A stretch of DNA of 64,000 nucleotides. Origin: an uncultured Chlamydiales bacterium. GTDB taxonomy: Bacteria > Chlamydiota > Chlamydiia > Chlamydiales > JAAKFR01. The notes below the pieces were generated by a model. That model made no database searches, was not told the DNA's origin, and worked only from the letters and a program-made list of their open reading frames with translations. The DNA is taken from positions 1,707,779 to 1,771,778 of the forward strand of contig CAWHVD010000001.1 of NCBI GenBank assembly GCA_963832835.1, in the 5' to 3' direction. Below, piece by piece: positions 2,980 through 63,534 of this stretch; within the stretch, counting starts at the first letter, position 1; the number at the start of each line of letters is the position of its first letter. The position numbers were made by a program, and so were the translations under genes.

Positions 2980-4386
2980 ATGGCATATTCAATAACCCTA
3001 CTTGTAAACTCATACTACCCTCCTAAAGCTGAAGAGGGCACTGAAGCTCCCAAAAATCCACTCAATGAGAAGGGCGCCCTCATCATGGATTTGGTGCTCG
3101 CAAGTATTGCTTTGGCAACAGGAGCTTTGGCACTAGCAGCAGGAGCGCATGATCTTGGCCCCCTTAACTTTTTAGGTAATCTCTCCCAAGCATGGTCAAT
3201 TTCTCTCATTTCAGCAGGTGGTGGTATGATCCTCGTTGACCTATCTATCCTTGCCATCAAAAACTGCAAAAAAGAAACCTCAGAAGCACCACTATTACCA
3301 CCCAGAGGCCCAAAAGAAGTAGGTGCTGGTTCAGAAATACAATCTGCTGCACGCCCTAGATCCCCTTCTGCCCCAGCGACACTAAACAGTCCCGATCAAA
3401 CAACGATGCAGTTGAAACAATCTGCTACTCCGCCTAACAATCTAGATAGAGACCCGTTGCCTACCGCACCACTTTCAGGGGATGAGATTCCCCTGGATGA
3501 GCAGGGAAAACAAGAACTGCTGAAACTGGTAGCCTCCCTACCACCTCCTCCATCAATGGAATACGTACAAGATAACATTGAAGATCTCCATGCGAGCTTG
3601 GGATTATTCGTCAAGAAACAGTTGGCGGCTCCTCAAATCGCAACTAATCCTGCTATTGTTCAGGCATCACTTGCTAATATCATCCAAAGAAATGAAGTTA
3701 ATGAAGCCCTCAATTATGTGCGTGAATACTTTGAGAAAAAAGCTAACGCAAAGGTCATTACCCCTTCGGGAGATTTGGGAGCATCCATCATTGATGCTGC
3801 AGCAACTGAAATCGATAGTGCGGACTTACCAGAGTGGCTCGGGTCTTACTTGATAGCCTTGAGCAATTTCATGTACGCAGGAGAGACACAAGAGAGCATA
3901 AAAGCTCGCTTACCTGCTATTTACGAAGCACTTACTAAACTCGAAGCTCAGATTATGGCAGCAAACCGAATAGCGACTGGCGATCCTGAGGCTAACGCAA
4001 TGCGCAAACAGGCAGAGGCAGAGGCGGCTAATAAGGCACGTACTGAAGCTCAATTCAAAAAGCAAACTACAATCTGTAAAAAGGCCCGATGGTTCAAGCC
4101 TTTTAGCGATAAGAAATATGATCTGACAACGATGGATCTCACCAAACTCAAATCGAACGGAAAAAATGTACTAGTAGGGTTAGTCGACTTAGGTGACGTC
4201 TATCGAGACGTCGAAAAACTCCGCAGGCGTCTCGAAGCCGTTAAGCCAGATCAGCTTTTAGACGAAGCCAAATTACAAGAAATTGAGGCACAGGGCACTA
4301 AAGTTACTGAAATTGCCAAGAAGATCAAGAAAGCGCTCGAGGGCCTACAACAGGGACTCGCGCAATTTGAAGGATTATTTGCTTAA
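2980..4386 (+). CDS. Inc-like membrane protein with Pro-rich linker and helical/coiled-coil C-terminus
   Basis: 468-aa ORF, AAGGA RBS, hydrophobic hairpin at aa ~33-93. Confidence 0.8.
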   Translation: MAYSITLLVNSYYPPKAEEGTEAPKNPLNEKGALIMDLVLASIALATGALALAAGAHDLGPLNFLGNLSQAWSISLISAGGGMILVDLSILAIKNCKKETSEAPLLPPRGPKEVGAGSEIQSAARPRSPSAPATLNSPDQTTMQLKQSATPPNNLDRDPLPTAPLSGDEIPLDEQGKQELLKLVASLPPPPSMEYVQDNIEDLHASLGLFVKKQLAAPQIATNPAIVQASLANIIQRNEVNEALNYVREYFEKKANAKVITPSGDLGASIIDAAATEIDSADLPEWLGSYLIALSNFMYAGETQESIKARLPAIYEALTKLEAQIMAANRIATGDPEANAMRKQAEAEAANKARTEAQFKKQTTICKKARWFKPFSDKKYDLTTMDLTKLKSNGKNVLVGLVDLGDVYRDVEKLRRRLEAVKPDQLLDEAKLQEIEAQGTKVTEIAKKIKKALEGLQQGLAQFEGLFA

Positions 4387-11471: not shown

Positions 11472-14400
11472 ATGTTTGATCCTGGTATACGTGACCAACT
11501 AGATGTTGAACAAGCCCGAAGTAACTCGTCTGTGTTTTCAACGGCGTGGGGCTATGTTCCAGGCAGAGAATCATTGGGAACAGCTTGGAGTTATGTTCCA
11601 GGCAGAGAGTCATTGGGAAGAGCTTGGAATCATATGCCTAATATCCCAGGGGTAGGGACCGTTCGTGCGGTCATGCAAACTTCCCAGAAAGTACAGGAAG
11701 TAATAGCTGATCCCACAGAATTTGCTACGCAAGTTGCAAAAGGAACGGGTCTAGGTATTATGGCTGCTCTTCAAGTACCGCCCCAGGCGCCAGGTGAACC
11801 CACTGCCGAGGATGAAGACACTGTGTCCTTAGCTCCCGCTGCTTTGTCTTCTCGCCTCTCCCAGATCTTGATGGGTGGTGTTTCTGCTGGCTCTTCGTTT
11901 GTGATGAAACAACTACTCGAAAATTCTGAAACCTATGATCTAGACCAGGAAGATGTCAATCTCCAAGCTGAAGCTATAAAAACCTTAACCAAAAACCAAA
12001 ACGTACAAAAATCACTTCCGGAAACGGCAAAGAGTGTGTGGAATACACTGAACAAATACCATATTCTTATTGGCGGGATTAACCTTAATATCAAAAACTC
12101 TTCCGACGAAAAAATGCGCGATGAGCGTGTAAAATCAGAGGGCCCCAACTTGGACGGTTACAGCCCGATCCACTCTTTGATGCAATGCCAGGAATCTTGG
12201 CGCACACTCCGTACTAACCATGCATTGAATTTAGTCAATCCCTCCCCTACCATCCCCTCTTCTAATTCCCGAAGAACACGCGTTCTTCAAACAGCAGAAG
12301 AGAAAGCACAAATAGAAGCCTTAGTGACTAAAACCGATACTTTGGTCAGCAATTTTTCTCAAAAGACCGTTCATTACGCGACGATGTACATCATACACCG
12401 TATCTGTAATCACAGCTTTGACCCTGCCATCTATCAACAAATCTTACAAGAGGGTGGAAACATTGAAGAGGCTTATCTCAAGAAATTTGACGGTCCGGTG
12501 CGTCGGATTTTATACAAAGCAGCATTCCGCACTATTGCTTGGTTCATCCGTCCCCTGATCGGCAAAACCATCGAAGAGGTTATTACCCATTTGCGTAAGT
12601 TCCTCAATAGCGACGTCGATCTTCTTCAACTTGTTCAGAAAAAAATGGGAGATATGGCTGACTACTATGGCAGGATTGAAAAAGCACGCTGCGATTATAC
12701 CCAACCCAATCGAAACGACGAATGCGGCACCTTTGACAATTTTCTTAAACACACAATCCAGGCTTATGGTCAGCAAAAATTGACTGAGGAAGAGCTCATG
12801 AAGATTTTTGGCGACTATATCGTCGATAACTTTGTTCCTCGACCCCAAATCAAATTTTTTGGCTACAAAATCCCTCTTATATCCAGTTTTTTCGAATGGA
12901 TCGGCCATTCGATCCGTAAAGCCGTTGTGCGGCATGCCATGAATAAAGCGGGCATCGTCAAAAAAATGCTCACTCAAGGAACCGATTCTGTTCATTATGC
13001 GCAGCTAGGACTTAAGCGCCTTTTGGCGCAAAAGCTAGATCAAGTCCTCAAGATGGTGCAACGATCGCGCTCACGCCCTGTTGTAGTTATGGATCCCCTG
13101 GTTGCTCAACCGGTGCAGCCTACCTCTCTTGATCTGGAAGCAAAAAAAACACAGCTCATCTCACGTCAATTGCATTTGATCATCCAACAGCATAGTTCCA
13201 AATTGCTTCGCTTTATTGATATTGAATCCTGCAATGGCGATGAGAGGAAGCTGGCCGATCTCGATAACCGTGTGAGCGCTCTTGTCTCAGAGATCATGAG
13301 CACCGCCAGTAACGTCTACAAAGGGGAGCCCTTCTCAATCGGTAAAGTTCTAGAAGATGCCTCCACACATGCGATGGAGACAGCCCTACTTGCCCTTTTC
13401 GAGGATAAGGAAAAGCAAATTGAGGAAAACCTACAAACCATTTTTGATGTTTTAGATAAATCCTACACTTACGTTCCCGAAAATGAGAGAGCTGATAGCG
13501 AAAGACAGTTTTTAGAAGAATGCGCACAGGTGGACCAAAACCTCAGCTCCTTGCAAGATCAACTCTCTCGGGCCGCAGTTGCAGCAGCTTTAGAATCGCA
13601 CTTAAAAAATGTGAGCGGTGAAAAGCACAATAACATTAAAAGTTATGTTCAAAATGAAAAAGAATTATATGCAAATTTCGTTCAAGAGCTAACACAGCTA
13701 GGTAACCAATTCAATATTGCCGACACTACTCAATCCAGCTCTTCTCCCCTCAAGGCAAGCGTCTCAAGAGCCATTTCGTTGATCGAGCAATACTTGTCCC
13801 ATATCTCAGCTCAACTGCCCAGTCCCGAATTAGAAGCTTGCTATAGTGATGTAAGAGGTGATTTGCATAATATTTACGCCTCTGCAATTGTCCATCTCAA
13901 TAAGCTGCACGAGAAAATGAATCAGATAGCCATCGCGATGAATACGATCAACAAAACAGAAGGTGAGATTGTAGACACAAACACCTGCGAAAAGGCGTTA
14001 CACAATTTTTCACTGGAGCGACCATTTCAAGAGACAATAGATACCTGCAAAGCTATCCAAACTCAACTTCCCCCTAGCATCCAAGAGGAGCTTAAGCAAA
14101 AATTAGAAGCTGTCATTGGGGATCGAGATACGCTTGAAAACACGATCGCCGAACTTACGACATTTGATCTTCGTGCAAAAGTAAATAAGACTCTGGGTGG
14201 ACTGAAGGAAAAACAAGCATTATTCGCACAAGCTAAGAACGAATTGGACTCCCTCAAACTGGAAAGCCGAGAATATCACGATTTACAAGGAACGAATAGT
14301 ACCTACCTAACACAAGAAGCTGTGGACCTAAGGAAAGCTGACTTGCTCGAAACTATCCAAAAACGCAGCAATTGGCTGAATCAAATTCAAGATGTTGATT

Positions 14401-14993
14401 TTAAGCGTGATATATCCCCTCATTTAGCTATTAAAATTACCAATCAGTTATACACTATTTTCTACCCCTCCTTTTTTGCCACAAAAGTTCCTATCTTTTC
14501 TAATTTGAGCGCATTGCAAGCCGGCGTCCAACAATGGATCGAAAAAAAAGAAACGGAGTTGGCAGAGCTTCCAGAAACTCCATCTATAAGAAAAGAGATT
14601 GAAGACAAAGAAGTGAAGCTCAGCGATCAGATCTTGAAGAGCATCAAAGCGATTCAAGAGAGACTACAGCAAAATCGGATCGCGCAACAGATGCAAGGGG
14701 ATGAGTTAAAAATTTTAATTACACAAATTCAAAAAGAAGCTTTTGAAGGCGAGAGCTTTACATCTTTGAGCCAGCTCACTGAGCATTTTACAGTCAAAGG
14801 GTGCATCTCTGTAGGAGAAATTAAACTCCACAACCGATTAGCCCCAGAGATCACAGCCCACATCGCGCCTAAAATTATCAAAGGAACACGCACCATGATT
14901 GATGCCATGGGAAAACCCTTTCACTACAAACAGCTTGTACTCAGGCTGCTCTTTCTTGACATTGCCGACCGTAGAGCCACTGACCAGGAATAA
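11472..14993 (+). CDS. Large helical/coiled-coil hypothetical protein, candidate effector
   Basis: 1173-aa ORF; N-terminal 13-aa tandem repeat; no recognisable enzyme motif. Confidence 0.8.
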   Translation: MFDPGIRDQLDVEQARSNSSVFSTAWGYVPGRESLGTAWSYVPGRESLGRAWNHMPNIPGVGTVRAVMQTSQKVQEVIADPTEFATQVAKGTGLGIMAALQVPPQAPGEPTAEDEDTVSLAPAALSSRLSQILMGGVSAGSSFVMKQLLENSETYDLDQEDVNLQAEAIKTLTKNQNVQKSLPETAKSVWNTLNKYHILIGGINLNIKNSSDEKMRDERVKSEGPNLDGYSPIHSLMQCQESWRTLRTNHALNLVNPSPTIPSSNSRRTRVLQTAEEKAQIEALVTKTDTLVSNFSQKTVHYATMYIIHRICNHSFDPAIYQQILQEGGNIEEAYLKKFDGPVRRILYKAAFRTIAWFIRPLIGKTIEEVITHLRKFLNSDVDLLQLVQKKMGDMADYYGRIEKARCDYTQPNRNDECGTFDNFLKHTIQAYGQQKLTEEELMKIFGDYIVDNFVPRPQIKFFGYKIPLISSFFEWIGHSIRKAVVRHAMNKAGIVKKMLTQGTDSVHYAQLGLKRLLAQKLDQVLKMVQRSRSRPVVVMDPLVAQPVQPTSLDLEAKKTQLISRQLHLIIQQHSSKLLRFIDIESCNGDERKLADLDNRVSALVSEIMSTASNVYKGEPFSIGKVLEDASTHAMETALLALFEDKEKQIEENLQTIFDVLDKSYTYVPENERADSERQFLEECAQVDQNLSSLQDQLSRAAVAAALESHLKNVSGEKHNNIKSYVQNEKELYANFVQELTQLGNQFNIADTTQSSSSPLKASVSRAISLIEQYLSHISAQLPSPELEACYSDVRGDLHNIYASAIVHLNKLHEKMNQIAIAMNTINKTEGEIVDTNTCEKALHNFSLERPFQETIDTCKAIQTQLPPSIQEELKQKLEAVIGDRDTLENTIAELTTFDLRAKVNKTLGGLKEKQALFAQAKNELDSLKLESREYHDLQGTNSTYLTQEAVDLRKADLLETIQKRSNWLNQIQDVDFKRDISPHLAIKITNQLYTIFYPSFFATKVPIFSNLSALQAGVQQWIEKKETELAELPETPSIRKEIEDKEVKLSDQILKSIKAIQERLQQNRIAQQMQGDELKILITQIQKEAFEGESFTSLSQLTEHFTVKGCISVGEIKLHNRLAPEITAHIAPKIIKGTRTMIDAMGKPFHYKQLVLRLLFLDIADRRATDQE
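11541..11627 (+). repeat. 39-bp coding tandem repeat (about 2.2 units)
   Basis: TAWGYVPGRESLG / TAWSYVPGRESLG / RAW. Confidence 0.85.
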
Positions 14994-22084: not shown

Positions 22085-22200
22085 GCAAACCATGTATAAA
22101 ACAATCCTTTAGTTATCACATGTTTCGCACTCAATTGACCGGCGATCCTGGCATGCTAATTGCTTAGCATATTTTTCCTAAATGAAAAAAGGAGAAAAAT

Positions 22201-22461
22201 ATGATCCATTCCAGAAAACTTGGCCTCGCTGGGGGAATACTATGGGGTTTCTGCATGTTTATTTGTACAATCATCGCGATTTACACTGGATATGCTGAAC
22301 AATTTCTAAATGTTATGTCTAGCATCTACCCTGGATACACAATTTCATGGTGGGGAAGCCTAATCGGCCTCATTTATGGGTTTTTTGACGCTTTTATCGG
22401 GTTGTTTCTTCTCGGATGGATTTATAATTTACTAAACCACCAATCATTACAAAAAAAATAA
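22201..22461 (+). CDS. Small membrane protein (holin-like family)
   Basis: 86 aa, AGGAG RBS, hydrophobic, YPGY...GSLIG..YGFFD motif. Confidence 0.7.
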   Translation: MIHSRKLGLAGGILWGFCMFICTIIAIYTGYAEQFLNVMSSIYPGYTISWWGSLIGLIYGFFDAFIGLFLLGWIYNLLNHQSLQKK

Positions 22462-22474
22462 AGCAACAATTTTG

Positions 22475-22663
22475 GTGACTATTCTCGAGCCGGCAGAATC
22501 CTTGAGGCAGGCTCAGTTTGCCAAGGACAAGGTACCTCACAGAAGCTCCAGTGGAGCTTTTTTGATGGATTGTCCGAGAGTTGACGCAGTTAACCGAGGG
22601 GGAGTGGATAGCCACAATAGATAGGCTTTTAACCGAAAAGATGGGGATTGCCTGAATAGTCAC
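22475..22663. mobile_element. MITE-B copy 2 (189 bp)
   Basis: TIRs GTGACTATTC / GAATAGTCAC; CAATTTT on both sides; internal hairpin AAGCTCCA-G-TGGAGCTT followed by Ts. Confidence 0.75.
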
Positions 22664-22756
22664 CAATTTTTCCCGTGTGTGCCTTAAGTTGAGGCCGTAC
22701 ATGGATAAAATGGGCAATAACACCGGAACGCAAGGGTGCTTCAGTCATTCTTGTTA

Positions 22757-22917
22757 TACCATTTCCAGAAAATAAAGTCACAAATTGGCACTGTATAACA
22801 CGCCATTTTTGGACGATCCTTTCTCGCTTAGGTACAAAAACATAGGCTTCGAAACGATCCTTCAAATCTACCATGTTACCCAGCACCACCTCATGGCTTT
22901 ATTTTTGATAAATGGTA
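22757..22917. mobile_element. MITE-A copy 6
   Basis: 161 bp; flanks TTA / TAA. Confidence 0.9.
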
Positions 22918-22998
22918 TAACACTGAAACCAAGAAAAAATATTTGTCTAAAAAGAGCTCATGCCACACAGTTTTTCGTGAACTTAAACGAGATATAGC

Positions 22999-25900
22999 AT
23001 GATTCCCTCTGATTCAAAATTCCCTAACTCCCAAATGCCTTGGTGCATGAGCCAGGAGATCTCCCAACGGCTGCAACCTGCTAACGCCCAATTCAAAGCC
23101 GCCCTTATTTTAGCCACTGATCCTGAATACATTTTTATTTCACGTTATTTCATGGCAAATAAGCCCCCCGGCTACAACATCGGTAAAATTACCTGTGTCT
23201 ATAACAGTTCTTTGCATACTGAGTTTGTAGCTCACTTACATACGATAGAAGAAAATGCCAAAAAGTTTCCTCCCACTTGGCATACTGAAGCATTGCCTCA
23301 AGAAAGAAAGGGCATTATCGCGAGCTGGAGAGCCCTGACACGCCCCTTTTCACCTCTTTCAATACAGGTAGAGGAGGAGAAAAAGACCCTGAGCTCTTCC
23401 AAAGTTCTTCCTCTTTGGTATGGCACCTCCTCTAAAAAAGCCCAATCGATCAGCTCCTCAGGCTTTACTAATTGTGAAAAGGATGGTTATTTTGGCAATG
23501 GTATGTATTTTACAGACAGCGCCCATTATGCCTCCATGAACAATAAAGGTTTTTTGCTCCTTTCGTGGGTCAGCATGAGGGAACCGTTTCCTGTTGTCAG
23601 CGATACGATCCCTCCCAGGCTGTGCGCAGATATTATGGCCCTCAAAGGAAAAGAGGCCTATCAATACTACGATACTCATTTTATTCCCGTTGCTTCATGC
23701 CTGCCAGCTAGTGCAGATACAATAGACTATTTCCCCTGCACCCCAAACCAAAAACCGGATTGCCATCAGATCGTCGTTTTCCAAAAATCACAAGCCTTGC
23801 CCTCTTTTATCATTGAGCTCACAGCGGACCTTCTCCCTTCCCCTCCTATCTGTGATCTCGAGTATGTGGAGCTTTCCAAAGACATCGAGGGTTACTACTG
23901 CAACAGGCTTCTTCAAGCAAAAAAAGCAGAAGACGTCCAAGAGCAGATCTCTTGCCTAGAAAAGCTCGGTGATCTTTACTTAGAAAAACACAATTGGGTA
24001 CAAGCAGCAAAAATCCTCAACGGAGCACTCGCCATTCTAGAAAAACAGGGCGGTAATCCAACACATCTTTTAACAAGACTAGAGCAGATACCAGCCCTCT
24101 TTCTTAAGAGTAGGGGTTTCACCATTTCAGCTGCACACCAAAAATCCATCGTCCGCTATCGCACCCAGCTTAGAGAGGCACGCTCTCGTTATTCTGAGCA
24201 ATTCCAGAAGGGAGCGCCTATAAGAGGGATACAGAGATACCTCACGGCCTTTTTCATAAAAATCTTAAACTCTTTAATTTTAGATTCTCAAGAATGCTTA
24301 GGAGCTCCTCCCGTAGAATGGGCATGTATGGGAATGGGCTCGATGGCAAGGGACGAAATGTGCCCCTACTCCGATCTCGAATTCGCCTTTCTCGTCGCGG
24401 CGAAGACAGAAAAAAGCCTTCAATATTTTACGACTCTCACCCAGCTCCTAGAATTGAGAATCATCAACTTTGGAGAGACAAACTTTCCTCTTTTCGGCAG
24501 GTTGTTTGGAGAGAAATCAGCTCAAGCCAGCCCCACCCCTAGCGGTTTTTCTATGGATTCAGGAGGCAATAGCCCCTTGGGTAAGCCCGGGTTTTATGAG
24601 CTCATCGATACACCAGAAGAGCTTGCCCAATTCCAACGTGTTGAGTGGATGGAGGCTGACATTATTGTCACCAATGCCCTCTCTTCCGTTTGTTATATTG
24701 CTGGCAGTGAAACACTCACAAATGCCTATCACACAGCTAAAGAGGCACAATTCAATAAAGCAGATTATAGCCTTTTTTTTGCAGGACCCCCTTTTCGCGA
24801 AAAGCTTGCCATGAGGCTCTTGGAAGGGCACCTACAAGAATTTAAACCCGATTTATCCCAAGAGAAACAAGAGACCAATGCCTTCGGCATTAAAAAAGAG
24901 CTCTACCGTCCTTTTCAATCCCTGCTGGCCAGCCTCACTCTTTTTTGTGGGCTCAAACTCCAATCTTCTTTCGGAATGGTTGAGCAACTTCTACAAAACA
25001 AAATCCTCTCTCAGGAAGGTTCCAGAAGCTTGACACAAGCTCTCCAACAAGTCCTTGCCTTACGTTTCGAAGCCCATACCTTTTACCAAAATGAAGAGGA
25101 ATTGCTCCTCCATGCGGACAAGGAACAACCTCAAGACCCCCACTATCTTTACCTCGAAGAAAAACGCCTCTCAGTCCTGAATGAGATTTACAGGGTACTG
25201 ATTCCCTTTCACCGCTGTGGAGAAGAGTTTTTGTGCACAGAAGATCCCAAAGTATTTGCAAAAGCTCTCTTTTATGATGAAAGCCCGTCTGTCCAAGGAG
25301 AAGCCTTTGATAAAAACCTGCAGTATAAAAAGGCAAAAAAGGCGCGCCAACAAGCCGTCTCTCTTAACCCCAATGATATTGTTGCTCAGGTGCAGCTCGG
25401 TGAAATTGAATTGAGAGTGGCTGGAGATAGGAAAGCTATATCAAGAAGTCTGAAGGCACTAGCACTGGCCCAGGACAAATATGGTGAAAACAGTCTCCCT
25501 GTAGTTAGAATCTGTAATCTTATCGGACATGGTTATTTACGCATGGGGGAGAATGTTAAGGCTCTCGAATATTTCCAAAAGGCCCAGAAGATTCAGATCC
25601 TGCTTCTGGGCGAAAACAATCTCGATGTAGCTATAAGCTATAACAGTTCGGGCATTGTTTATAAAAACCTCGCAGAGATCCCAAAAGCAATCGAATGTCA
25701 CAACAGGGCTTTGAATATTTTGCTACAGATGGTGAAAAACCTTCCTGATATGGCTGTAATGGAACAAGTAGTCGCAACTCTCAATTACGTCTGCTCTATC
25801 CACAGACATCGGGGTGCACACGCTGAAGCTCTTGAGCTCCACCAAAAGGCTCTCAAGATTCAGCTCCAGTTCTTGGAGGAAAAAAATCCCAATGTAGCCA

Positions 25901-26856
25901 ATAGCTACATTGATATTGGTTCTGACTATAATAGCCTCGGCAAACACGACAAAGCCCTCGAGTTTTACCACAAGGCTCTCCGGATTCAGCACGAGATATT
26001 AGGTAAACATCATCTTGATGTAGCTAGAAGCTACGGCTACATGAGCCATGCCTATAAAGACCTTGGGGAGTATGGCAAAGCTCTAAGGTATTCTCAAAAA
26101 ACTTTAAAATTACAGCTCCGCCTTTTGGATGAAACCAATCCCGTTATCTCTACTAGCTACAACAATATTGCCACGGCCTATATGAAGCTTGGGGAATATG
26201 GCAAAGCACTAGAATGTTCTCAAAAAGCCTTGAAGATTCAGCGACAAGTTTTGGTCGAAAACCATCCTGATATAGCCACAAGCTATAATAGTCTTGGCCT
26301 TGCCTACAAAGGTCTCAGCCAATATGACCTATCCCTCCAATCATACCAAAATGCTTTGAAGATCCAGCTTCAGATCCTAGAAGGCAATCATCTCCATATC
26401 GTCATCAGCTACAATGCGATTAGCATTGGCTATTTGGACCTCAAGGACTACGAAAATGCACTAGAATATTCTCAAAAAGCCTTGAAGATTCAGCGACAAG
26501 TTTTGGTCGAAAACCATCCTGATATAGCCACAAGTCATGAATACAGGGGATTTCTTTATCAACAACTTGGAAAAAACGAAAAATCTCATGAATCTTATCA
26601 AGCTGCTTTAAAGATTTTGCTTCCCCTATATGGCCCTGCCAACGATCGTGTAAAATCAATCAGCGCACGTATGAATCAAATCCCAAATAATGGGAAACCT
26701 ACACCTCATGCAGCACAAATTGTAGAGGATCATGGATGTTGCTTTTACTGTTTTGTATGCACATCCACCTGTCTATTCCTTCCTTGCTATTGGTGTTGTT
26801 GCGCAAAGAATACTGAAGAATCTGAAAAATTGATTATAAATCAAACGCTGAAGTAG
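22999..26856 (+). CDS. Multidomain protein: PARP/ART-like + GlnD/DUF294-type nucleotidyltransferase + TPR array + Cys-rich tail
   Basis: LWYGTS...GYFGNGMYFT...QIVVF; GSMARDEMCPYSDLEF; 42-aa TPR units; terminal CCFYCFVC..CL..PCYWCCC. Confidence 0.8.
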   Translation: MIPSDSKFPNSQMPWCMSQEISQRLQPANAQFKAALILATDPEYIFISRYFMANKPPGYNIGKITCVYNSSLHTEFVAHLHTIEENAKKFPPTWHTEALPQERKGIIASWRALTRPFSPLSIQVEEEKKTLSSSKVLPLWYGTSSKKAQSISSSGFTNCEKDGYFGNGMYFTDSAHYASMNNKGFLLLSWVSMREPFPVVSDTIPPRLCADIMALKGKEAYQYYDTHFIPVASCLPASADTIDYFPCTPNQKPDCHQIVVFQKSQALPSFIIELTADLLPSPPICDLEYVELSKDIEGYYCNRLLQAKKAEDVQEQISCLEKLGDLYLEKHNWVQAAKILNGALAILEKQGGNPTHLLTRLEQIPALFLKSRGFTISAAHQKSIVRYRTQLREARSRYSEQFQKGAPIRGIQRYLTAFFIKILNSLILDSQECLGAPPVEWACMGMGSMARDEMCPYSDLEFAFLVAAKTEKSLQYFTTLTQLLELRIINFGETNFPLFGRLFGEKSAQASPTPSGFSMDSGGNSPLGKPGFYELIDTPEELAQFQRVEWMEADIIVTNALSSVCYIAGSETLTNAYHTAKEAQFNKADYSLFFAGPPFREKLAMRLLEGHLQEFKPDLSQEKQETNAFGIKKELYRPFQSLLASLTLFCGLKLQSSFGMVEQLLQNKILSQEGSRSLTQALQQVLALRFEAHTFYQNEEELLLHADKEQPQDPHYLYLEEKRLSVLNEIYRVLIPFHRCGEEFLCTEDPKVFAKALFYDESPSVQGEAFDKNLQYKKAKKARQQAVSLNPNDIVAQVQLGEIELRVAGDRKAISRSLKALALAQDKYGENSLPVVRICNLIGHGYLRMGENVKALEYFQKAQKIQILLLGENNLDVAISYNSSGIVYKNLAEIPKAIECHNRALNILLQMVKNLPDMAVMEQVVATLNYVCSIHRHRGAHAEALELHQKALKIQLQFLEEKNPNVANSYIDIGSDYNSLGKHDKALEFYHKALRIQHEILGKHHLDVARSYGYMSHAYKDLGEYGKALRYSQKTLKLQLRLLDETNPVISTSYNNIATAYMKLGEYGKALECSQKALKIQRQVLVENHPDIATSYNSLGLAYKGLSQYDLSLQSYQNALKIQLQILEGNHLHIVISYNAISIGYLDLKDYENALEYSQKALKIQRQVLVENHPDIATSHEYRGFLYQQLGKNEKSHESYQAALKILLPLYGPANDRVKSISARMNQIPNNGKPTPHAAQIVEDHGCCFYCFVCTSTCLFLPCYWCCCAKNTEESEKLIINQTLK

Positions 26857-26871
26857 TCTGAGCTCACCTAA

Positions 26872-27032
26872 TACCATTTCCAAAAAATAAAGTCACAAAT
26901 TGGCACTGTATGACACGTCATTTTTGGACGACCCTTTCTCGCTTAGGTACAAAAACATAGGCTTCGAAACGATCCTTCAAATCTACCATGTTACCCAGTG
27001 CCACCTCATGGCTTTATTTTCTGGAAATGGTA
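26872..27032. mobile_element. MITE-A copy 7
   Basis: 161 bp; flanks TAA / TAA. Confidence 0.9.
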
Positions 27033-27277
27033 TAAGTTATAGACCAAAAGCGCCAGCAATCTCGATGTTTTGACCGGTGATGTAGGCTGTTTTGAGATCG
27101 AAAAAGGTGGCAATGATGCGGGCTACTTCTTGTAGGGTTGCAAATCTTTTCATGGGCAAAAGATCAGGGTCTGAAAGGTCGATTGCATTTTCCATATAGC
27201 CGGGGGAGACCATGTTAACCCGGATGTTATCTGGAGCAAGCTCTTTGGCAAGGGATACTGTGTAAAAATGCAACGCT
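26956..27277. repeat. Left copy of the 322-bp target duplication of the IS1634-family element
   Basis: Matches 29101..29422 with one mismatch seen (27205 G vs 29350 A). Confidence 0.95.
27037..27277 (-). pseudogene. Duplicated 3' fragment of the SDR gene
   Basis: ALHFYTV...GAFGL identical in protein sequence to the C-terminus of 29182..29892. Confidence 0.85.
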
Positions 27278-29100
27278 CCTGAGTTTGACACTTGCTTCAC
27301 AAGTGTCAAATAATTAGGTTTTTACGATCGAAATTTCAGGCACAACATTCAGTTTTCAGGGCAGTGCCTCGTTTGGTCGAAATCCCAAGTACCTGAAAAA
27401 TTTTCTCAGCATCTGGCGAAAGCATAGATTGCATTTTTCCCTCGCGTTTCGTCGATTGATCTTCAAAAACTGTTGTATGTACTTGAGCTAACGCGTGTCT
27501 GATGCGGTCAGGGGTAAGATCAAAGCGCTTCTGTCGAAGCAACCACTCTAAAAATCTTTCGAAAAATAAATTCATGAAGCAGAGTAAAACGTGTGTCTTG
27601 ATCCGATGAGTGGTCCAGTGAAAAATTGGACGTGCCTTGAGGGTACATTTGGCAATTCTGAATGCTTCTTCGACATGCCATAAATCGCGGTAGCGCGCTA
27701 AGGCCTGTCCCACACTTAGTTGTGCGCTATTTGAAACAGTAATACCATGAAAACCATCCCAGCTTGCATCCTCTTCGATTGTTTTCTCGTTTAGTGTGAG
27801 CAATGAGCCTTCTTTTACAGTGGTATATTTTTTGTACCCGCCATTGCTTATCACTTTTTTGACAGAAGTTTCGTTTGTTGTATCGGATAGCTTCTGTTTT
27901 AATTTTTCGACCAAGCGTTCCCTATCACCTTTGTCTTTCTTGGCTCTGCTAGGACTATAGGTTGCAATCAGCTGGGTATCAGCATACTGCGGGTGCTGCA
28001 TCACACGAAAGCGTACCCTATCTTCTTCCGGAATGGCTTCTTGGCCTGGCAAAAACTGATAAGCTGCTAAATCATTAATTTTTAATTTTTGAGACATAGA
28101 GCGAAGCTTTGCCGCTATTACAAAATGGAATTGTGCCTCTTGAAGGGCTATCACGTTTTGCTGGCTTGCCAAACCTCGATCACATACCACAGTGACATTG
28201 TTAATTGAAAATCGACTGCGTAATTTTTCAAGAACGGGAATGAGTGTTTTTGTTTCCGCTAAATTACCCTTAAAGACCTCATAAGCAATTGGCAATCCCT
28301 GGGAATCAACAACTAGAGCCAAGACTATCTGGACCGAATGATGCTTCTGATCCTTGCTGAAGCCAAATTCTTTTAAGTCATCTTGCGTAACACTTTCAAA
28401 ATAAAGGGTTGTAACATCAAAGAAAAAACAGTCAACAAGTCCTCCTAAAGCCTTGGAAACAGTATCGAAAGCTTGTGCTTGAATCGCGTCATCTAGGGAT
28501 GCGATAGCATCCATAGAGCGATAAATATGCTGTAAATCAATCCCTTCAAAACCATGCTCTTCCTGGCGCTCGTAAGTGCGTAGTTTGCTGCTAGGCAAGT
28601 CAAATCGTTGGACAAGCATCAATTTGATGATCTCCTGGACATCGAACTGGTGCTTGCCTTGAGCAGATTGAATGATTTTTCCAAAGCCCGATACAGCCAT
28701 TAGCCGGTCTACCACCAGGCCAAAACCATCGTAGATAGTTTGTTTGTGTTTGAGGTCATTGAGGGCCACTTTGGGATCGATTTCCAAACCCTCTTTCTCT
28801 AATCTCTGAATAATCTTATCAGCTAGATCCTTAAGCCGTTCTAAATCTTTTTTGCTTTTGACAACTCCTAAATGGGCGATAGTACGCTGTCTTACCTTTT
28901 TGCCTTCCCGAATACCCTCCACGATTTGAAGAGTAGGATATTTAGCCTTCTTGGATGTCTTCATTCTGATATACATGCATAACATTATGGCACAAATAAA
29001 CGAGATAGTCAACATTAATTCCATGCACAACATTAAAATCTAAAAAAAATTGAACATCAAGCCCTTAGCGTTTTTGAAAGACCCAACTGTCAAAGTCAGG
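27278..29100 (-). mobile_element. IS1634-family insertion sequence (1823 bp)
   Basis: TIRs CCTGAGTTTGACA / TGTCAAAGTCAGG, single transposase, long flanking direct repeats. Confidence 0.9.
27336..28976 (-). CDS. IS1634-family DDE transposase
   Basis: MYIR...R.GKKVRQRTIAHLG, FFDVTTLYFES, FGFSKD, GN.AE..T, VCDRG, Y..LWHVEEAFR..K, RPIFHW. Confidence 0.9.
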   Translation of the reverse strand: MYIRMKTSKKAKYPTLQIVEGIREGKKVRQRTIAHLGVVKSKKDLERLKDLADKIIQRLEKEGLEIDPKVALNDLKHKQTIYDGFGLVVDRLMAVSGFGKIIQSAQGKHQFDVQEIIKLMLVQRFDLPSSKLRTYERQEEHGFEGIDLQHIYRSMDAIASLDDAIQAQAFDTVSKALGGLVDCFFFDVTTLYFESVTQDDLKEFGFSKDQKHHSVQIVLALVVDSQGLPIAYEVFKGNLAETKTLIPVLEKLRSRFSINNVTVVCDRGLASQQNVIALQEAQFHFVIAAKLRSMSQKLKINDLAAYQFLPGQEAIPEEDRVRFRVMQHPQYADTQLIATYSPSRAKKDKGDRERLVEKLKQKLSDTTNETSVKKVISNGGYKKYTTVKEGSLLTLNEKTIEEDASWDGFHGITVSNSAQLSVGQALARYRDLWHVEEAFRIAKCTLKARPIFHWTTHRIKTHVLLCFMNLFFERFLEWLLRQKRFDLTPDRIRHALAQVHTTVFEDQSTKREGKMQSMLSPDAEKIFQVLGISTKRGTALKTECCA

Positions 29101-29422
29101 CATAGGCTTCGAAACGATCCTTCAAATCTACCATGTTACCCAGTGCCACCTCATGGCTTTATTTTCTGGAAATGGTATAAGTTATAGACCAAAAGCGCCA
29201 GCAATCTCGATGTTTTGACCGGTGATGTAGGCTGTTTTGAGATCGAAAAAGGTGGCAATGATGCGGGCTACTTCTTGTAGGGTTGCAAATCTTTTCATGG
29301 GCAAAAGATCAGGGTCTGAAAGGTCGATTGCATTTTCCATATAGCCGGGAGAGACCATGTTAACCCGGATGTTATCTGGAGCAAGCTCTTTGGCAAGGGA
29401 TACTGTGTAAAAATGCAACGCT
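29101..29422. repeat. Right copy of the 322-bp target duplication (includes partial MITE-A at 29101-29177)
   Basis: Starts immediately after the IS end; matches 26956..27277. Confidence 0.95.
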
Positions 29423-57554: not shown

Positions 57555-59039
57555 ATGCAAGACCTCTATCCTAACAATGATGAATGGGGAGAGCCTCTCT
57601 CTTTAGTGGGGAGGGCTCTCCCCTCCTGGCCTCAGAATGTATTTCCTGATGCTATGGAAGATTTTGTTCGTGAGCTTGCTCGTTTCACAGAAACTCCAAT
57701 TGAACTCAGCGCGATGCTTGCTATCACCGCTGTTGCCACTGCTAGCCATAAAAAGTATCAGGTTCAAGTTAAAGAAGGTTACTGCGAGCCCGTCAATCTC
57801 TGGACAATAGGGATACTGCCTCCGGCCTCCAGAAAGTCTAGCGTATATAAAGAGATAGCAGCACCTCTTAAAGAATGGGAACGTGATCAGAAAGCTGCTC
57901 TCGAGCCACTCATTCGATCCGCAGAAAGCAATCTCAAAACTCAAGAGGCTCGACTCAAAATATTGAGAATGCAAGCTGCTAAAGCTTCCAATGATCATGA
58001 TTACGCTATTTTACAGGAGAAGATAGAACAGCTAGAAAGCGCATTGACAGCAATCCCCGGCTATCCTCGAATTTGGGCTAGTGACGTGACTAATGAGCAG
58101 CTTGGGGTGATCATGGCAGCCAACGGAGATGCCATGGCATTACTGAGCGATGAGGGTGGTATATTCGACATCATTACGGGTCTATATTCTGACGGTCAAA
58201 GCAATATTGACCTCTTCTTGCAAGCCCATGCGGGAAGTTCTTTCCGTGTAGATAGAGGCTCTCGCCCTCCTATTTTTATGGAACGAGCGGTATTGACCAT
58301 GGGACTAACCGTCCAGCCGCATGTGATAAAAAAAATCACTAGCAACAAGACCTTTAGAGGAAGAGGGTTGCTTGGTAGATTCTTGTATGTATTACCCAAG
58401 TCTAATATTGGTTCGAGAACATTGGACGAGCCTCCTATGTCACCTGAATGCTCTGCGCGTTTTCGAGCGATCATCACAGCGATTCTAAATCAGCTAACAC
58501 CTGCTACGGATACGATTGGAATACATACTCTCCAACTGGATGGAGAGGCATATGGAAAATGGCTAGAGTTTGCGAAATGTATTGAGACGTTGATGGGCGA
58601 AGATATAGGGTTTCTATCGCACATTACGGATTGGGCTGGAAAGCTCCCTGGAGCCGTAGCGCGCCTTGCCGCTTTGTTACATATTGCTCGTTACGCTCAT
58701 CAACACCCCCATGAACGTAAGATATCCCTTCATGACATGTCTGCCGCCGTAAAAATAGGACATACCCTGTTGCATCATGCATTAGCAATTTTCGACCTAT
58801 TGCAAGAAGATGATGCAATGCAGATAGCGCGTTCCATTTATCATTGGATAAAAGAGCAAAACCTAGAGCAATTTTCTTTACGGGATTGCAAGAGAAAATT
58901 CAGACGCCTTAAGGATAGTGTCCCAGCTGGTCTTTTAGTGCTTGAAGAAGCAGAGATTATTCGAGGATGGGAGAAAGCTCCATCCGTGGGACGCCGTTCC
59001 GATATGTATTCAGTCAATCCCAAGGTTCTAGAAAAGTAG
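57555..59039 (+). CDS. DUF3987/YfjI-family replication-associated P-loop protein
   Basis: PVNLW.....PASRKSS, DVT.E.L, SDEGG.F, VDR, G.TVQP, RGLLGRFLY. Confidence 0.85.
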   Translation: MQDLYPNNDEWGEPLSLVGRALPSWPQNVFPDAMEDFVRELARFTETPIELSAMLAITAVATASHKKYQVQVKEGYCEPVNLWTIGILPPASRKSSVYKEIAAPLKEWERDQKAALEPLIRSAESNLKTQEARLKILRMQAAKASNDHDYAILQEKIEQLESALTAIPGYPRIWASDVTNEQLGVIMAANGDAMALLSDEGGIFDIITGLYSDGQSNIDLFLQAHAGSSFRVDRGSRPPIFMERAVLTMGLTVQPHVIKKITSNKTFRGRGLLGRFLYVLPKSNIGSRTLDEPPMSPECSARFRAIITAILNQLTPATDTIGIHTLQLDGEAYGKWLEFAKCIETLMGEDIGFLSHITDWAGKLPGAVARLAALLHIARYAHQHPHERKISLHDMSAAVKIGHTLLHHALAIFDLLQEDDAMQIARSIYHWIKEQNLEQFSLRDCKRKFRRLKDSVPAGLLVLEEAEIIRGWEKAPSVGRRSDMYSVNPKVLEK

Positions 59040-59815: not shown

Positions 59816-60069
59816 TACGAGAGTGCGGAGCAAAGGCCAGAACACATGGACACCAGCCATGCCGGCGTATAGCAATGGCCAATGGGCGCTGTCACCTTCA
59901 TGGCGGTAAAGTTCCTAAGCACAATCCTGGTCCAAAAACGGAAGAAGGCAAACTGCGCCAAAAAATGGGTTCATGGAAGCATGGCATGCGATCAAAAGAA
60001 GCTACTGCTGAGAGGCGGACCATTCGTGAAATAGTAAAAGATTATAAAAATGCGCTTGCAGGTTTATAG
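59812..60069 (+). CDS. HGGxSTG-domain protein
   Basis: CGAK.R.....PC...AM.NGRC.LHGG......GPKT.EG.......WKHG. Confidence 0.85.
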   Translation: MIRECGAKARTHGHQPCRRIAMANGRCHLHGGKVPKHNPGPKTEEGKLRQKMGSWKHGMRSKEATAERRTIREIVKDYKNALAGL

Positions 60070-60142
60070 CTTGCCCTTTTTTAAGAGATAATCATTTCCT
60101 AGAATGGCGCAAAACTTCTAAGTTGTTAAAGGCATGCATTTT

Positions 60143-61195
60143 TTATAGTTCAGTATTAGGGGTCAAAAGTAGAGCGCATTGCTTGTTATTTCGAAGACCA
60201 GAGCACAGAATTTGACCGGAATCATTTATGAAAAGGGCTACTCTCAACGAAATATCCTTTGGTAAATCAGGAATCAAGGCCATTAAATCAATCGGTCTTC
60301 CCGCTTTCCAAAGAATGGCTTTTGTTACATAGGCAAGGACCTGTGGATTATGGTTTACTAACCTTTGGCTGTTAATTGTTGATAAGCCAACAATATCTCC
60401 ATTATCATTTACGTCGCACGCTTCGGAGACTGGACCACCGAATCCATCTAACAATATATAGGTATCCTTTTTCCATACGAAGGCCATTTTATGAACCGCA
60501 TTATGAAAACCTTCTGAATTTTTCAGGCTGCCATAGTAATTTTCATTGTGCCAAAGGTTCTTTCCACAGTTGAAAATAATGCGTCCCGAAGGGATATTTC
60601 TATATCTCTCAATATCAACAGAAACAAATTGATTTAATTTTAGAGGATTTTCGGCCCAGCCTACCACCTGCTTTAAATTATTTACCGCATTTGCTTCTGA
60701 ATAAGCTGTCATAATAACATTATTGTTGAGTGTAGCATAGTTTTTATTATATCTATTGGAGTATATGGAGCCTACTTGGTCACCAAGGCTATTTCGCCCA
60801 TATGAAGCACCACTTGCGGGCGCCCGTTCAAACAAGAAGTTACTTTGCTCATCAAGTCGCCAGACTAATTTTGATGTAAAAGCAAGTTGGCTATTCAAAA
60901 CGACCCAAGGCATGGTAGCGCGTCCAAGCATGTCAGCAAGATCATTGATGTCATAAGTCGTGGAGGGTCGTTGGTCATTCGGACCAACAATCTGAATTCC
61001 TCTCGATGATTCCCAAAGAAATGCTTCACCTTTTGATGTTATTCCTACGATTTGTCCATGGTTATTCATGGCCATAGGAAAGACTTCGCCAAGAATTTCA
61101 AAACTAAAAAATTCCGCATTAAGGGCTAGAGGAATAAGTGTTAAGGCAAAAAATATACCTCTAATAAAACACGTAACTATTGGGCAGAATATCAT
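60143..61195 (-). CDS. Secreted HAF-repeat (beta-propeller-like) protein
   Basis: Signal peptide; repeated (I/V)N(D/N).G.(I/V)VG and AF.W units. Confidence 0.75.
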   Translation of the reverse strand: MIFCPIVTCFIRGIFFALTLIPLALNAEFFSFEILGEVFPMAMNNHGQIVGITSKGEAFLWESSRGIQIVGPNDQRPSTTYDINDLADMLGRATMPWVVLNSQLAFTSKLVWRLDEQSNFLFERAPASGASYGRNSLGDQVGSIYSNRYNKNYATLNNNVIMTAYSEANAVNNLKQVVGWAENPLKLNQFVSVDIERYRNIPSGRIIFNCGKNLWHNENYYGSLKNSEGFHNAVHKMAFVWKKDTYILLDGFGGPVSEACDVNDNGDIVGLSTINSQRLVNHNPQVLAYVTKAILWKAGRPIDLMALIPDLPKDISLRVALFINDSGQILCSGLRNNKQCALLLTPNTEL

Positions 61196-61314
61196 GAGGT
61201 TAAAATCTCCTATGCGACTTCATGATATTTTAATTAAATGCCATATTTACAAGAAGTTAAAACGTATTTTTTGCAAAATGCTGAGCACAAAATGCTACAA
61301 ATAAATCCCTGCAG

Positions 61315-61842
61315 TTGTTACGCTTTATCAATCTTAACATAAACAATTTACAAAGTTTTATGAAAATGATTATAAGACAAGTAGTCTTAGGTTTATTTCT
61401 TTTGGCGGTGTCGTCATTCAATTTCTTGCCTAATCATCTAAATGCCGCAGAGGTCGATAAGGGGTTGATGATAATAGACAACAAACCTTGGAAAATATCT
61501 TGGGTCCAAGAAAATGACATTCTCTGGGTGCTGATTGCACAGTTTGACAATGGAACACTTAGAACATTCTTTAAACGGCCTCCCCCCTCTAAAGGTTTGG
61601 GACTCTCTCCTGATAATCAGCCTACCAAACAAGAGTTCGAATTCTATTTAGGAAAAAAATTCACCAGTACCAAAAGTCAATTTGAACAGTGGCTAGATGG
61701 TGCGAAGTGCTATGCATTTATATATGAAGAAAAATTTGAGAGAGAAGGTAGGCAATTAGAATTTGGGACCACCGCGATAATTGAAGAAGTGGATAATGCT
61801 GAGAATGAAATAAGGTATGCAATGTTCAAAAGATTTAATTAA
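61315..61842 (+). CDS. Hypothetical secreted protein (true start probably near 61360)
   Basis: ORF with a signal-peptide-like segment. Confidence 0.65.
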   Translation: MLRFINLNINNLQSFMKMIIRQVVLGLFLLAVSSFNFLPNHLNAAEVDKGLMIIDNKPWKISWVQENDILWVLIAQFDNGTLRTFFKRPPPSKGLGLSPDNQPTKQEFEFYLGKKFTSTKSQFEQWLDGAKCYAFIYEEKFEREGRQLEFGTTAIIEEVDNAENEIRYAMFKRFN

Positions 61843-61861
61843 AAAGGCTTGAGGTAAGAAT

Positions 61862-62278
61862 ATGTTTAGAAAACATCTAATTTTAATACTAATTGTCTTG
61901 GCTCCAGCGGTTTTACATGCCGCTCCGACATATATCGGGAACTACAATACAAACAAGTATGACCCAAATTCGGTAAACAATCCATATGGCACTTCGGGGA
62001 GTCCATATAATTCGAACAGCATTAATAACACCTATGGGCGGTATGGAAGTCCTTACAGCAATAAATCAGCGACGAACCCCCACGCAACAGATGCGCCCAA
62101 ACTCTATGACCAAAATGGGAATTACAGGGGTAAGCTGAGCTCAAATCGTTATGACCCCGACTCCGTGTCTAATCCCTACGGTAGATATGGGAGCCCATAC
62201 TCCTCTAAAAGTATCAATAACCCTTATGGTGCGGGCAGCCCTTACTCTTCTGATGTAATTCAAATTTTTGGCGAATAG
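61862..62278 (+). CDS. Secreted protein with NPYG.YGSPYS repeats
   Basis: GAGG RBS, signal peptide, several S.NNPYG..GSPY units. Confidence 0.8.
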   Translation: MFRKHLILILIVLAPAVLHAAPTYIGNYNTNKYDPNSVNNPYGTSGSPYNSNSINNTYGRYGSPYSNKSATNPHATDAPKLYDQNGNYRGKLSSNRYDPDSVSNPYGRYGSPYSSKSINNPYGAGSPYSSDVIQIFGE

Positions 62279-62339
62279 AGGGGAAAATAGAACTACATAG
62301 ATAGCTATAAAGACTGAAATAAAGACAGGAATATTAATC

Positions 62340-63011: not shown

Positions 63012-63018
63012 GACGTCT

Positions 63019-63342
63019 TTACTGGTCGTCCGTTGCGTTGACCCCAAATAATTGAAATGGTCTTACTCTACTTAACGAAAATAGATAATCCTTGTCTGAG
63101 TTATTTTCGATGTACATCTGTACAGGATAATAACCATTGCTAATGACGTCCCGATCCAGATACTTCTTACACTCCTTCCTATCAAAAGTCTTTACGTAAA
63201 CAATAACATCCTCATGCACACCCGTGGTGCCTCTCGTAACCATAACTGGAAACAAATTATTCAAAGACGAGGCTTGATAACTGGCACAACTAGTTTAACT
63301 AACGCAGACTGATAGCAATAGAAATTTAAACACTGTCTTCAT
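63019..63342 (-). pseudogene. Lipoprotein pseudogene with nonsense codon in the signal peptide
   Basis: GGAG RBS, MKTVFKFLLLSVCVS*TSCASYQ..., TAA at 63295-63297, in frame with ORF 63019..63264. Confidence 0.7.
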
Positions 63343-63534
63343 TTCGCTTACTCCAAGTAATAACACCCAGAGATACTAATTGAGTTCGTGATTTAGAATA
63401 AGATAGAACCAATCTTTTTTTTAATATTTCTTATTTCTTATCCATCACAATTCAAAGGGTTGGATTTCTTTGAGCTCATGGAAAATTGAAAAGAAATATT
63501 TTGATTATTTAGGCATATCTGATTAGAATTTGAA

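Follow-up and report, generated by a model that had tools for sequence, protein, structure and literature searches.

A PARP-like domain with a degenerate triad fused to a DrrA/GlnE-type adenylyltransferase module and a Cys-rich tail: one of 39 paralogous proteins in the genome of an environmental chlamydia

DrrA is the model for AMPylation by an effector of adenylyltransferase fold. Its catalytic motif reads G98-S99-L100-X11-D110-X-D112, the residues D110, D112 and D150 bind Mg2+, and the D110A/D112A mutant is deficient in AMPylation (PMC7815794; this and the other papers are cited here from excerpts). In chlamydiae, the NEX2 family of Neochlamydia was described as 50 members that carry an F-box, with or without an OTU domain, followed by DUF294 and C-terminal tetratricopeptide repeats (TPRs); when members of each of four families, NEX2 included, were tested in Shigella, they proved to have a functional type III signal, and the ratio of nonsynonymous to synonymous substitution rates (dN/dS) was estimated at 0.29 (Domman et al. 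2014, PMC4209131). PARP-like toxin domains with an H-Y-E triad have been noted in actinobacteria and in Legionella drancourtii (PMC3482391), and S-palmitoylation by the host is documented for the injected effectors SspH2, SseI, GobX and LpdA (PMC5780409). Here we describe a protein that can be compared with these systems. It is encoded at positions 22999..26856 of a stretch of 64,000 nucleotides (nt), called the window throughout, which spans positions 1,707,779 to 1,771,778 of contig CAWHVD010000001.1 (C1 below) of an uncultured Chlamydiales bacterium (assembly GCA_963832835.1). The source genome comprises 2,610,102 bases in four contigs and is 97.9% complete. Named homologs of the protein come from Rhabdochlamydiaceae, Parachlamydia and Neptunochlamydia, and the organism that carries it is an environmental chlamydia.

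The protein, which we refer to as P0001, consists of a PARP-fold head with a degenerate triad, a transferase module of the DrrA/GlnE type, an array of kinesin-light-chain-type TPRs and a Cys-rich tail, and we consider these domain identities near certain. The limits of the open reading frame (ORF) given in the preliminary description of this DNA, 22999..26856 on the plus strand with an ATG start and 1285 amino acids (aa), were all borne out. The start codon is supported by its recurrence, since a MIPS[ND]...PW N-terminus is common to about 22 paralogs in the same genome, one of them without a PARP-like domain. No hydrophobic Sec-type leader is visible in the N-terminal sequence. The features, numbered from the first letter of the window, are as follows.

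22999..26856, plus strand: whole ORF of P0001, 1285 aa, ATG start, stop codon included.
22999..23088, plus strand: N-terminal leader MIPSD...PW, aa 1-30, a candidate type III secretion signal judging from its conservation among paralogs.
23086..23838, plus strand: PARP-fold ADP-ribosyltransferase-like domain with degenerate triad, aa 30-280 (Pfam, AlphaFold2 model, Foldseek, VIA-align).
23419..23421, plus strand: Y141, in the column of the triad His, which is H in 129 of 151 relatives.
23506..23508, plus strand: Y170, the triad Tyr, kept within GNGMYFTD (alignment).
23767..23769, plus strand: Q257, in the column of the triad Glu; every one of the 129 H-Y-E relatives has E there, as do most other variants.
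23866..24153, plus strand: TPR-like helical hairpins ahead of the transferase core, aa 290-385, also in aligned paralogs (model helices 7-82; TPR matches to KLC and LGN at Z of about 9-10, model residues 1-95).
23971..25245, plus strand: DrrA/GlnE-type adenylyltransferase module, aa 325-749, a Pol-beta-fold core and a helical "substrate-binding" domain (VIA-align, Foldseek, profile, Pfam).
24337..24381, plus strand: catalytic motif G447-S448-x10-D459-L-E461, aligned by HMMER with GS...D-L-D of DrrA.
24475..24477, plus strand: E493 (in GET), candidate third metal-binding carboxylate and putative counterpart of DrrA D150, invariant in 28 of 28 and 20 of 20 aligned rows.
24556..24558, plus strand: D520 (in GFSMDSGGN), alternative third carboxylate, invariant or nearly so in the alignments.
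25534..26667, plus strand: nine 42-residue kinesin-light-chain-type TPRs, aa 846-1223 (TPR_12 at 221 bits; 42-residue register).
26734..26805, plus strand: Cys-rich hydrophobic segment G1246-A1269, a candidate S-acylated cysteine string or tail-anchor helix (Cys density, hydrophobicity).
26806..26853, plus strand: polar acidic C-terminal end KNTEESEKLIINQTLK; its NTEES is common to the sister paralog, and the relative P0035 has EEEE here.

The central part of the protein is, in fold and motif, a full protein adenylyltransferase of the DrrA/GlnE type. The AlphaFold2 model of aa 290-760 is confident (predicted local distance difference test score, pLDDT, 93.6; predicted template modelling score, pTM, 0.91), and the four chains retrieved with it by Foldseek at E<=0.001 were DrrA 6yx5_B and three chains of E. 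coli glutamine synthetase adenylyltransferase. VIA-align superposed DrrA 14-344 (6yx5_B) on aa 325-749 with Z 29.8 and a root-mean-square deviation (rmsd) of 3.5 over 322 of 339 residues, and GlnE with Z 25.8 (1v4a) and 24.7 (3k7d); after fragments of DrrA (Z 14.3 and 13.1) the next rows lie at Z of about 10 and cover only the N-terminal TPR-like hairpins. A profile made from a domain-only alignment of 20 sequences (the window protein, four paralogs and 15 loci of other chlamydial genomes) matches Legionella DrrA at E 1.5e-11 in two stretches, one in the catalytic core and one in the helical domain, and HMMER aligns GS...SDLEF of the family with the GS...SDLDAF segment of DrrA. Pfam places DUF294 at aa 399-490 with 32.6 bits against a cut-off of 21, while the matches in an NCBIfam scan of the protein, weak ones to GlnD included, are all far below their cut-offs. 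The Pol-beta-superfamily motif GSMARDEMCPYSDLEF, pointed out before any of these searches, is present and has a helical domain after it. Residues G447, S448, D459, E461, E493 and D520 are unchanged in all 28 aligned relatives, and 31 of the 34 genome paralogs covering this region have an intact GS...D-x-E motif. For the third carboxylate, we favour E493 over D520 because in the model it is preceded by strand 2 and then a helix, the same setting as that of D150 in DrrA. Since fold and catalytic motif are both kept, the transferase looks catalytically competent as far as sequence and model can tell, and by analogy with DrrA and GlnE the likeliest chemistry predicted for it is the transfer of AMP to a protein hydroxyl.

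The head shares the fold of PARP catalytic domains. Its AlphaFold2 model (aa 1-289, from a 27-row alignment) has pLDDT 90.5 and pTM 0.89, and includes an extra N-terminal helical part in aa 1-120. Foldseek found 365 solved chains at E<=0.001 that, among the matches listed, were all PARP catalytic domains, the best being PARP13/ZAP (2x5y, E 3e-10). In VIA-align, tankyrase-2 came out with Z 18.6 (rmsd 2.0 over 169 residues), PARP12 with Z 18.1, PARP14 with Z 17.9 and PARP13 with Z 17.6 at 26% identity, and the Pfam model PARP (PF00644) passes marginally at aa 128-274, with 29.3 bits against a cut-off of 26.7 (E 7.5e-7). The preliminary description had staked its reading on an ADP-ribosyltransferase (ART) fold at the N-terminus, and the domain indeed models confidently as PARP-type, with Z up to 18.6; the motifs LWYGTS, GYFGNGMYFTD and HQIVVFQ are all in place. 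It had also noticed that Y and Q stand where the H and E of the triad are usual, and alignment with paralogs and outside homologs gives the triad as Y141-Y170-Q257. In the 24 paralogs of the genome with this domain, 21 have H-Y-E, two have Y-Y-Q (this protein and its sister P0002) and one degenerate copy has C-C-E. A search with aa 1-289 against 1.84 billion representative proteins gave 743 homologs at E<=0.001, 151 of them at E<=1e-30, and in these 151 aligned sequences the triad is H-Y-E in 129, Q-Y-E in four, Y-Y-E in three, R-Y-E in two and Y-Y-Q in the same two proteins, the remainder being single variants or truncated. For 136 of the 151, the start of the domain lies no further in than residue 60.

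Degeneration of the head is confined to few places. Conservation among H-Y-E sequences reaches 85% or more at 64 positions; the protein retains 55 of them, and the nine that changed are H141Y, F159C, G160E, I169M, Y181N, M212I, A226T, D256H and E257Q. F159C and G160E fall in the loop preceding the GxGxYFT motif, and this FGK loop is about 14 residues shorter than in H-Y-E paralogs. The closest non-self relative, P0070 (669 aa, truncated, 59% identity), is without ankyrin repeats and reads Y-E where the family reads H-G while its Glu is kept, which would agree with the canonical NAD+ site having been lost step by step in the subtype that lacks ankyrin repeats. Because two of the three triad residues of a canonical PARP are replaced, we do not class the head as an active PARP. 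Since the triad His and Glu and part of the loop are lost and the rest of the domain is well conserved, the head is, on the evidence of the alignment, most likely a pseudo-enzyme which would no longer ADP-ribosylate and would be kept for a non-catalytic binding or regulatory role. PARP13 is itself catalytically inactive and has a Y-Y-V triad.

The long array of 42-aa TPRs reported earlier resolves into nine repeats in register between aa 846 and 1223; the TPR_12 model scores 221 bits over seven stretches. For aa 761-1230, KLC2 (5fjy, E 1.3e-23) is the best natural relative of known structure. By the standard inference for such arrays this is a putative protein-binding part. Two proteins of amphioxus (Branchiostoma), P0067 and P0068, carry DUF294 together with TPRs of the kinesin-light-chain (KLC) type, their matches to the transferase region being at E 1e-14 to 1e-16; one of them is labelled "KLC4" by its source. 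The two-module chassis is accordingly also found in an animal genome.

In the tail, nine Cys in about 23 aa had been counted at first inspection, and they occupy residues 1247-1269; shuffling the protein 20,000 times never brought nine Cys into 23 residues. When the genome's 3686 stop-to-stop frames with a length of 100 aa or more are ranked by Cys density, this frame and its sister take the first two places. Hydrophobicity over 19 residues also peaks, for the whole protein, inside the 24-residue segment (Kyte-Doolittle 1.62, compared with 2.27 in P0035), which ends 16 residues before the C-terminus and gives way to polar sequence. The sister has ten Cys in 25 residues, with GCCF, LF.PC.WCC and NTEES conserved between the two. 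A similar tail, then acidic residues, stands directly after the TPR array in P0035, a transferase-TPR protein of 1105 aa on a different contig with no PARP-like domain. These three are the only ones of the 222 proteins gathered that contain at least six Cys in 25 residues. Since the tail recurs both in the sister and in the PARP-less P0035, it behaves, as judged from these sequences, like a small portable module. A homolog search with aa 1140-1285 returned ten proteins that match in the TPR part only, with a Cys tail in none of the eight new matches, but it is weak evidence on the frequency of the tail because the sister paralog was not among the matches. We take the layout to resemble that of eukaryotic cysteine-string tails and of CYSTM modules, the latter with a Cys-rich C-terminal helix. 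The tail probably places the C-terminus on a membrane, and it could equally be a tail-anchor transmembrane helix as a site of acylation.

The preliminary description did not recognise the full architecture as characterised, whereas the protein turned out to be one of 39 paralogs in its genome, and its DUF294-TPR core is the published NEX2 chassis. Among genome ORFs of at least 250 aa, the PARP-like domain is present in 24 and the transferase module in 36; together, the 39 ORFs with one or both amount to 52,097 residues, 6.0% of the genome. The inspected paralogs (e.g. P0004-P0008, P0010, P0011 and P0017) run from the PARP-like domain through ankyrin repeats and the transferase to the TPR array, and end in a sequence like ...QLIQLIARKT without a Cys cluster. 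The combination of a Y-Y-Q triad, no ankyrin repeats and a Cys tail is limited to P0001 and P0002, the latter located at C1:1916301-1920224 and 56% identical overall (70.6% in the PARP-like domain, 66% in the transferase core, 38.5% in the TPRs and 51% in the tail). In a quick maximum-likelihood tree of the transferase module, which covers 31 of 35 rows, the four that fall short of 300 aa being omitted, the two Y-Y-Q proteins pair as sisters (SH-aLRT 95) inside a 20-member clade with support 100. The other members of this clade that carry a PARP-like domain have H-Y-E, as does a further clade outside it. Since the Y-Y-Q sisters are nested in a clade that is otherwise H-Y-E, the Y-Y-Q, ankyrin-less and Cys-tailed state looks derived, and the head appears, from these alignments, to descend from an H-Y-E domain that 21 paralogs keep intact. 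Terminal branch lengths are 0.29 and 0.35 for the sisters, against a median of 0.1, and dN/dS between the two ranges from 0.09 to 0.29 by domain.

The family is also varied in other respects. In four copies the transferase is joined to apparent WD40-type repeats instead of TPRs, as judged by eye from the C-terminal sequences, and three short ORFs of the genome (441-497 aa) have a PARP-like domain without the transferase module. One member of 1278 aa, at C1:933465-937301 on the minus strand, has a Cys cluster at its N-terminus, ...MFGCCCSS..., which may be another lipidation-type motif.

By analogy with NEX2, we infer that the protein is a type III effector. The export gate SctV of a type III secretion system is encoded about 9 kb before the window (944.6 bits against a cut-off of 692.25). 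The acidic end had been considered as a type IV secretion signal, and this idea was dropped because the VirB4 and TraC models have no match in this 97.9% complete genome. Elsewhere in the phylum, 12 of 149 other genomes have the transferase module (E<=1e-10), a few of them with many candidates, and it is found in none of the 26 genomes of one family (f19; those listed are of 1.0-1.2 Mb). In the genome of the phylum sample with the greatest expansion, identity of the matches is only about 30%. The PARP-like head is present in three of 40 relatives, none above 45% identity. This patchy spread is the birth-and-death pattern described for chlamydial effector families. A literature search gave, among the matches listed, no link between PARP domains and environmental chlamydiae, and a single paper in which DUF294 and chlamydia occur together. 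A search of sequencing runs for the gene found no matching RNA run and one DNA run with 0.30 of its words.

From all these results we regard it as probable, if by no means strongly so, that the protein is a type III effector which has an active AMPylase, carries a pseudo-PARP domain and is anchored to a membrane by its C-terminus; secretion, catalysis, target and anchoring are the predicted parts of this composite. The central transferase, with its centre at G447-S448...D459-x-E461 and either E493 or D520, would take AMP or another nucleoside monophosphate (NMP) from a nucleotide triphosphate and attach it to a side-chain hydroxyl in a host protein. The KLC-like repeats would select or scaffold the target of the transferase, and the PARP-fold head would serve as a non-catalytic binding or regulatory domain. 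The Cys segment would anchor the protein to a host membrane, either through S-acylation by a host acyltransferase as in a cysteine string or by insertion as a tail anchor. Several points weigh against this composite. The secretin model TIGR02516 stays below its cut-off in the genome (91.4 against 238.45 bits), and only two NEX2 members were computationally predicted as secreted, according to the excerpt of the family paper (PMC4209131). DUF294_C, at aa 620-693, reaches 21.4 bits and so remains below its cut-off of 22.5, although the relative P0035 attains 27.8; a single-sequence search of aa 1-760 against solved structures was weak (PARP13 at E 0.13, DrrA at E 0.28), so that a family profile of the domain alone had to be used. 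Nor need Gln as the last triad residue mean an inactive enzyme, since VopU is reported in a preprint, here known from an excerpt, to be an active mono-ART with an H-Y-Q triad. The tree is a quick version whose midpoint root serves for drawing only, the careful search being unfinished. dS between the sisters is saturated (0.9 to 4.9), and dN/dS for that reason only hints at purifying selection. Finally, the hydrophobicity of the tail is borderline for a membrane helix, and no Pfam family, CYSTM included, was found for the three tails alone at E<=10, short biased sequences being easily filtered.

The last two points also weigh against the alternative that the tail is a true tail-anchor transmembrane helix, CYSTM-like, which inserts in a host or inclusion membrane with no acylation involved. 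This is a possibility to be reckoned with, if a lesser one: the segment is the most hydrophobic part of the protein and its place near the C-terminus, with a polar stretch behind it, suits a tail anchor, but part of its borderline hydrophobicity is due to the value of Cys on the scale and a Pro sits in the middle. The preliminary description was headed as a candidate effector of dual modification. In such an effector the Y-Y-Q head would still bind NAD+ and ADP-ribosylate in a non-canonical manner alongside AMPylation. The fold of the head is intact, the middle Tyr and the GxGxYFT motif are retained along with most conserved positions, and the sisters are most alike precisely in the head; besides VopU, active mono-ARTs with the last acidic residue substituted are noted in a survey of Legionella ARTs (PMC12522546). 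The His is replaced too, however, at a column where most relatives have H, the FGK loop is both altered and shortened with Y181 lost, the ankyrin-less P0070 already has Y-E for H-G, and the closest relative in sequence of known structure is the inactive PARP13. Because the changes take in the triad and the loop before the second motif of the PARP-like domain, we hold dual modification to be unlikely and prefer to regard the head as a pseudo-enzyme.

Two further explanations do without the pseudo-PARP effector altogether. The protein may not be directed to the host, acting instead within the bacterial cell as an NMP-transferase regulator akin to GlnD or GlnE, or as a conflict or immunity system where the TPRs sense and the enzymatic heads respond. 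DUF294, GlnD and GlnE proteins are typically intracellular regulators (although the GlnD matches here are the far sub-threshold ones mentioned above), and the secretion signal here is a candidate, with only two members of NEX2 predicted as secreted. On the other hand, the best match by both structure and profile is the secreted effector DrrA and not GlnD, no NTPase or sensor domain appeared among the matches listed in the Pfam scan of the protein, and the ankyrin, KLC-type TPR and PARP-type domains, in 39 copies expanded patchily and by lineage, resemble the NEX families, of which the NEX2 member tested has a type III signal according to the excerpt (PMC4209131). An intracellular role therefore seems to us quite improbable. 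Decay of a redundant paralog, with the odd triad and the tail both functionless, would agree with terminal branches longer than in most paralogs, with the low identity of the TPR part between sisters and with an insertion sequence (IS) element 480 nt downstream. Against decay, the frame of 1285 codons is uninterrupted and its transferase centre intact, the changes in the head are few, and Y-Y-Q, the absence of ankyrin repeats and the Cys tail with NTEES were kept in two copies only 56% identical, so that we give this explanation very little credit. The effector with an active AMPylase, a pseudo-PARP head and a membrane-bound tail is the reading we retain.

The gene is bordered by copies of a dispersed repeat, with the following features in its flanks.

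22841..22920, no strand assigned: dispersed repeat, one copy (length about 80 nt), situated about 80 nt ahead of the ORF.
26868..27036, no strand assigned: two inverted copies of the same repeat just past the stop codon, forming a long hairpin which may be a terminator or mRNA end.

The hairpin has a folding energy of -60.4 kcal/mol (z -8.8), and none of 200 shuffles was as stable. The repeat is present at more than 110 sites in contig C1, on both strands and with copies 88-97% identical; for several of these copies the end of another family paralog is no more than about 200 nt away. A scan of 22100-27400 for promoter and terminator consensus sequences gave nothing convincing near the gene. 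Further downstream is an ORF for an IS-type DDE transposase (27336-29033, minus strand), flanked by a perfect direct repeat of 300 nt (26956-27255 and 29101-29400) that duplicates the 3' end of a short-chain dehydrogenase gene. The direct repeat could be a real long duplication or an effect of assembly. A second copy of the IS element, 99.9% identical, is located at C1:783970-785792. Three other ORFs of the window, all on the plus strand, match no Pfam family at E<=1e-5 (11472-14993, 1173 aa; 2980-4386, 468 aa; 35950-37263, 437 aa). The G+C content is 0.36-0.38 at positions 1-2000 and 60001-64000 of the window and about 0.45 elsewhere; the low-GC ends may belong to a foreign or mobile segment, and a gene for a DUF3987 protein (57555-59039) adjoins the low-GC stretch.

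A structural relative of DrrA over its full length (Z 29.8) is thus found in an environmental chlamydia, in dozens of copies and joined to a PARP-type head, a combination for which the literature search yielded no description among the matches listed. This fusion at the level of a family, a PARP head with a DrrA-type AMPylase making up 6% of a genome, is a more striking fact than the present copy, which is a pseudo-PARP offshoot of the family with a tail that probably attaches it to a membrane. The copy is a natural experiment in which the scaffold of the paralogs was kept, the ADP-ribosyltransferase centre replaced and a Cys-rich tail added. As such it could help to tell apart what each of the two enzymatic heads does and to see how effectors of symbionts are redirected to host membranes. 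It is tempting, if rather speculative, to suppose that the PARP head has turned into a domain that senses or docks NAD+, ADP-ribose or a host protein that has been ADP-ribosylated, gating or aiming the AMPylase, while the cysteine-string-like tail takes the protein to host membranes; we think this rather unlikely. If it were true, this copy and its sister could act downstream of, or compete with, the 21 paralogs with an intact triad, reading the marks which those write.

Compared with known systems, the protein is closest in layout to NEX2. Both have a DUF294 nucleotidyltransferase in mid-protein and a TPR array at the C-terminus, both belong to massive lineage-specific expansions (50 members there, 39 ORFs here) of proposed type III effectors, and purifying selection, estimated there, is hinted at here. 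They differ at the N-terminus, where a PARP-like domain, followed by ankyrin repeats in the inspected paralogs, replaces the F-box with or without OTU; an F-box is not among the best 25 of 28 Pfam families at E<=1 for this protein. The organism also belongs to a different family-level group than Neochlamydia, and a Cys tail is not part of the family description in the excerpt consulted (PMC4209131). The NEX2 picture is in this way widened, as the DUF294-TPR chassis can carry different N-terminal heads. The head shares the PARP-type ART fold with PARP13, tankyrase, PARP12 and PARP14 (Z 17.5-18.6, rmsd 1.9-2.4), and PARP13/ZAP is its best match in sequence (26% identity) and likewise has Tyr at the position of His; unlike in PARP13, the third triad residue is Gln, and the domain is N-terminal in a bacterial multidomain protein and has an added helical part. 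The TPRs are 42-residue repeats of the TPR_12 type as in kinesin light chain, although the heptad-repeat region for kinesin heavy chain is absent. Like SspH2, SseI, GobX and LpdA, which use cysteines to reach host membranes, the protein may do so by way of its dense cluster near the terminus; those effectors use one or few Cys, whereas nine are packed into 23 residues here. The transferase differs from DrrA in many respects, being 16% identical, with Glu and not Asp as second carboxylate, without a guanine nucleotide exchange factor or phosphatidylinositol 4-phosphate-binding domain, flanked by the PARP-like domain, TPR hairpins, KLC-type TPR array and Cys tail, and presumably exported by a type III system and not by Dot/Icm. 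It nonetheless has the same fold as DrrA and GlnE across the whole domain and the same G-S...D-x-[DE] centre, and the helical domain that follows the core matches that of DrrA as well (3l0i_C, Z 13.1).

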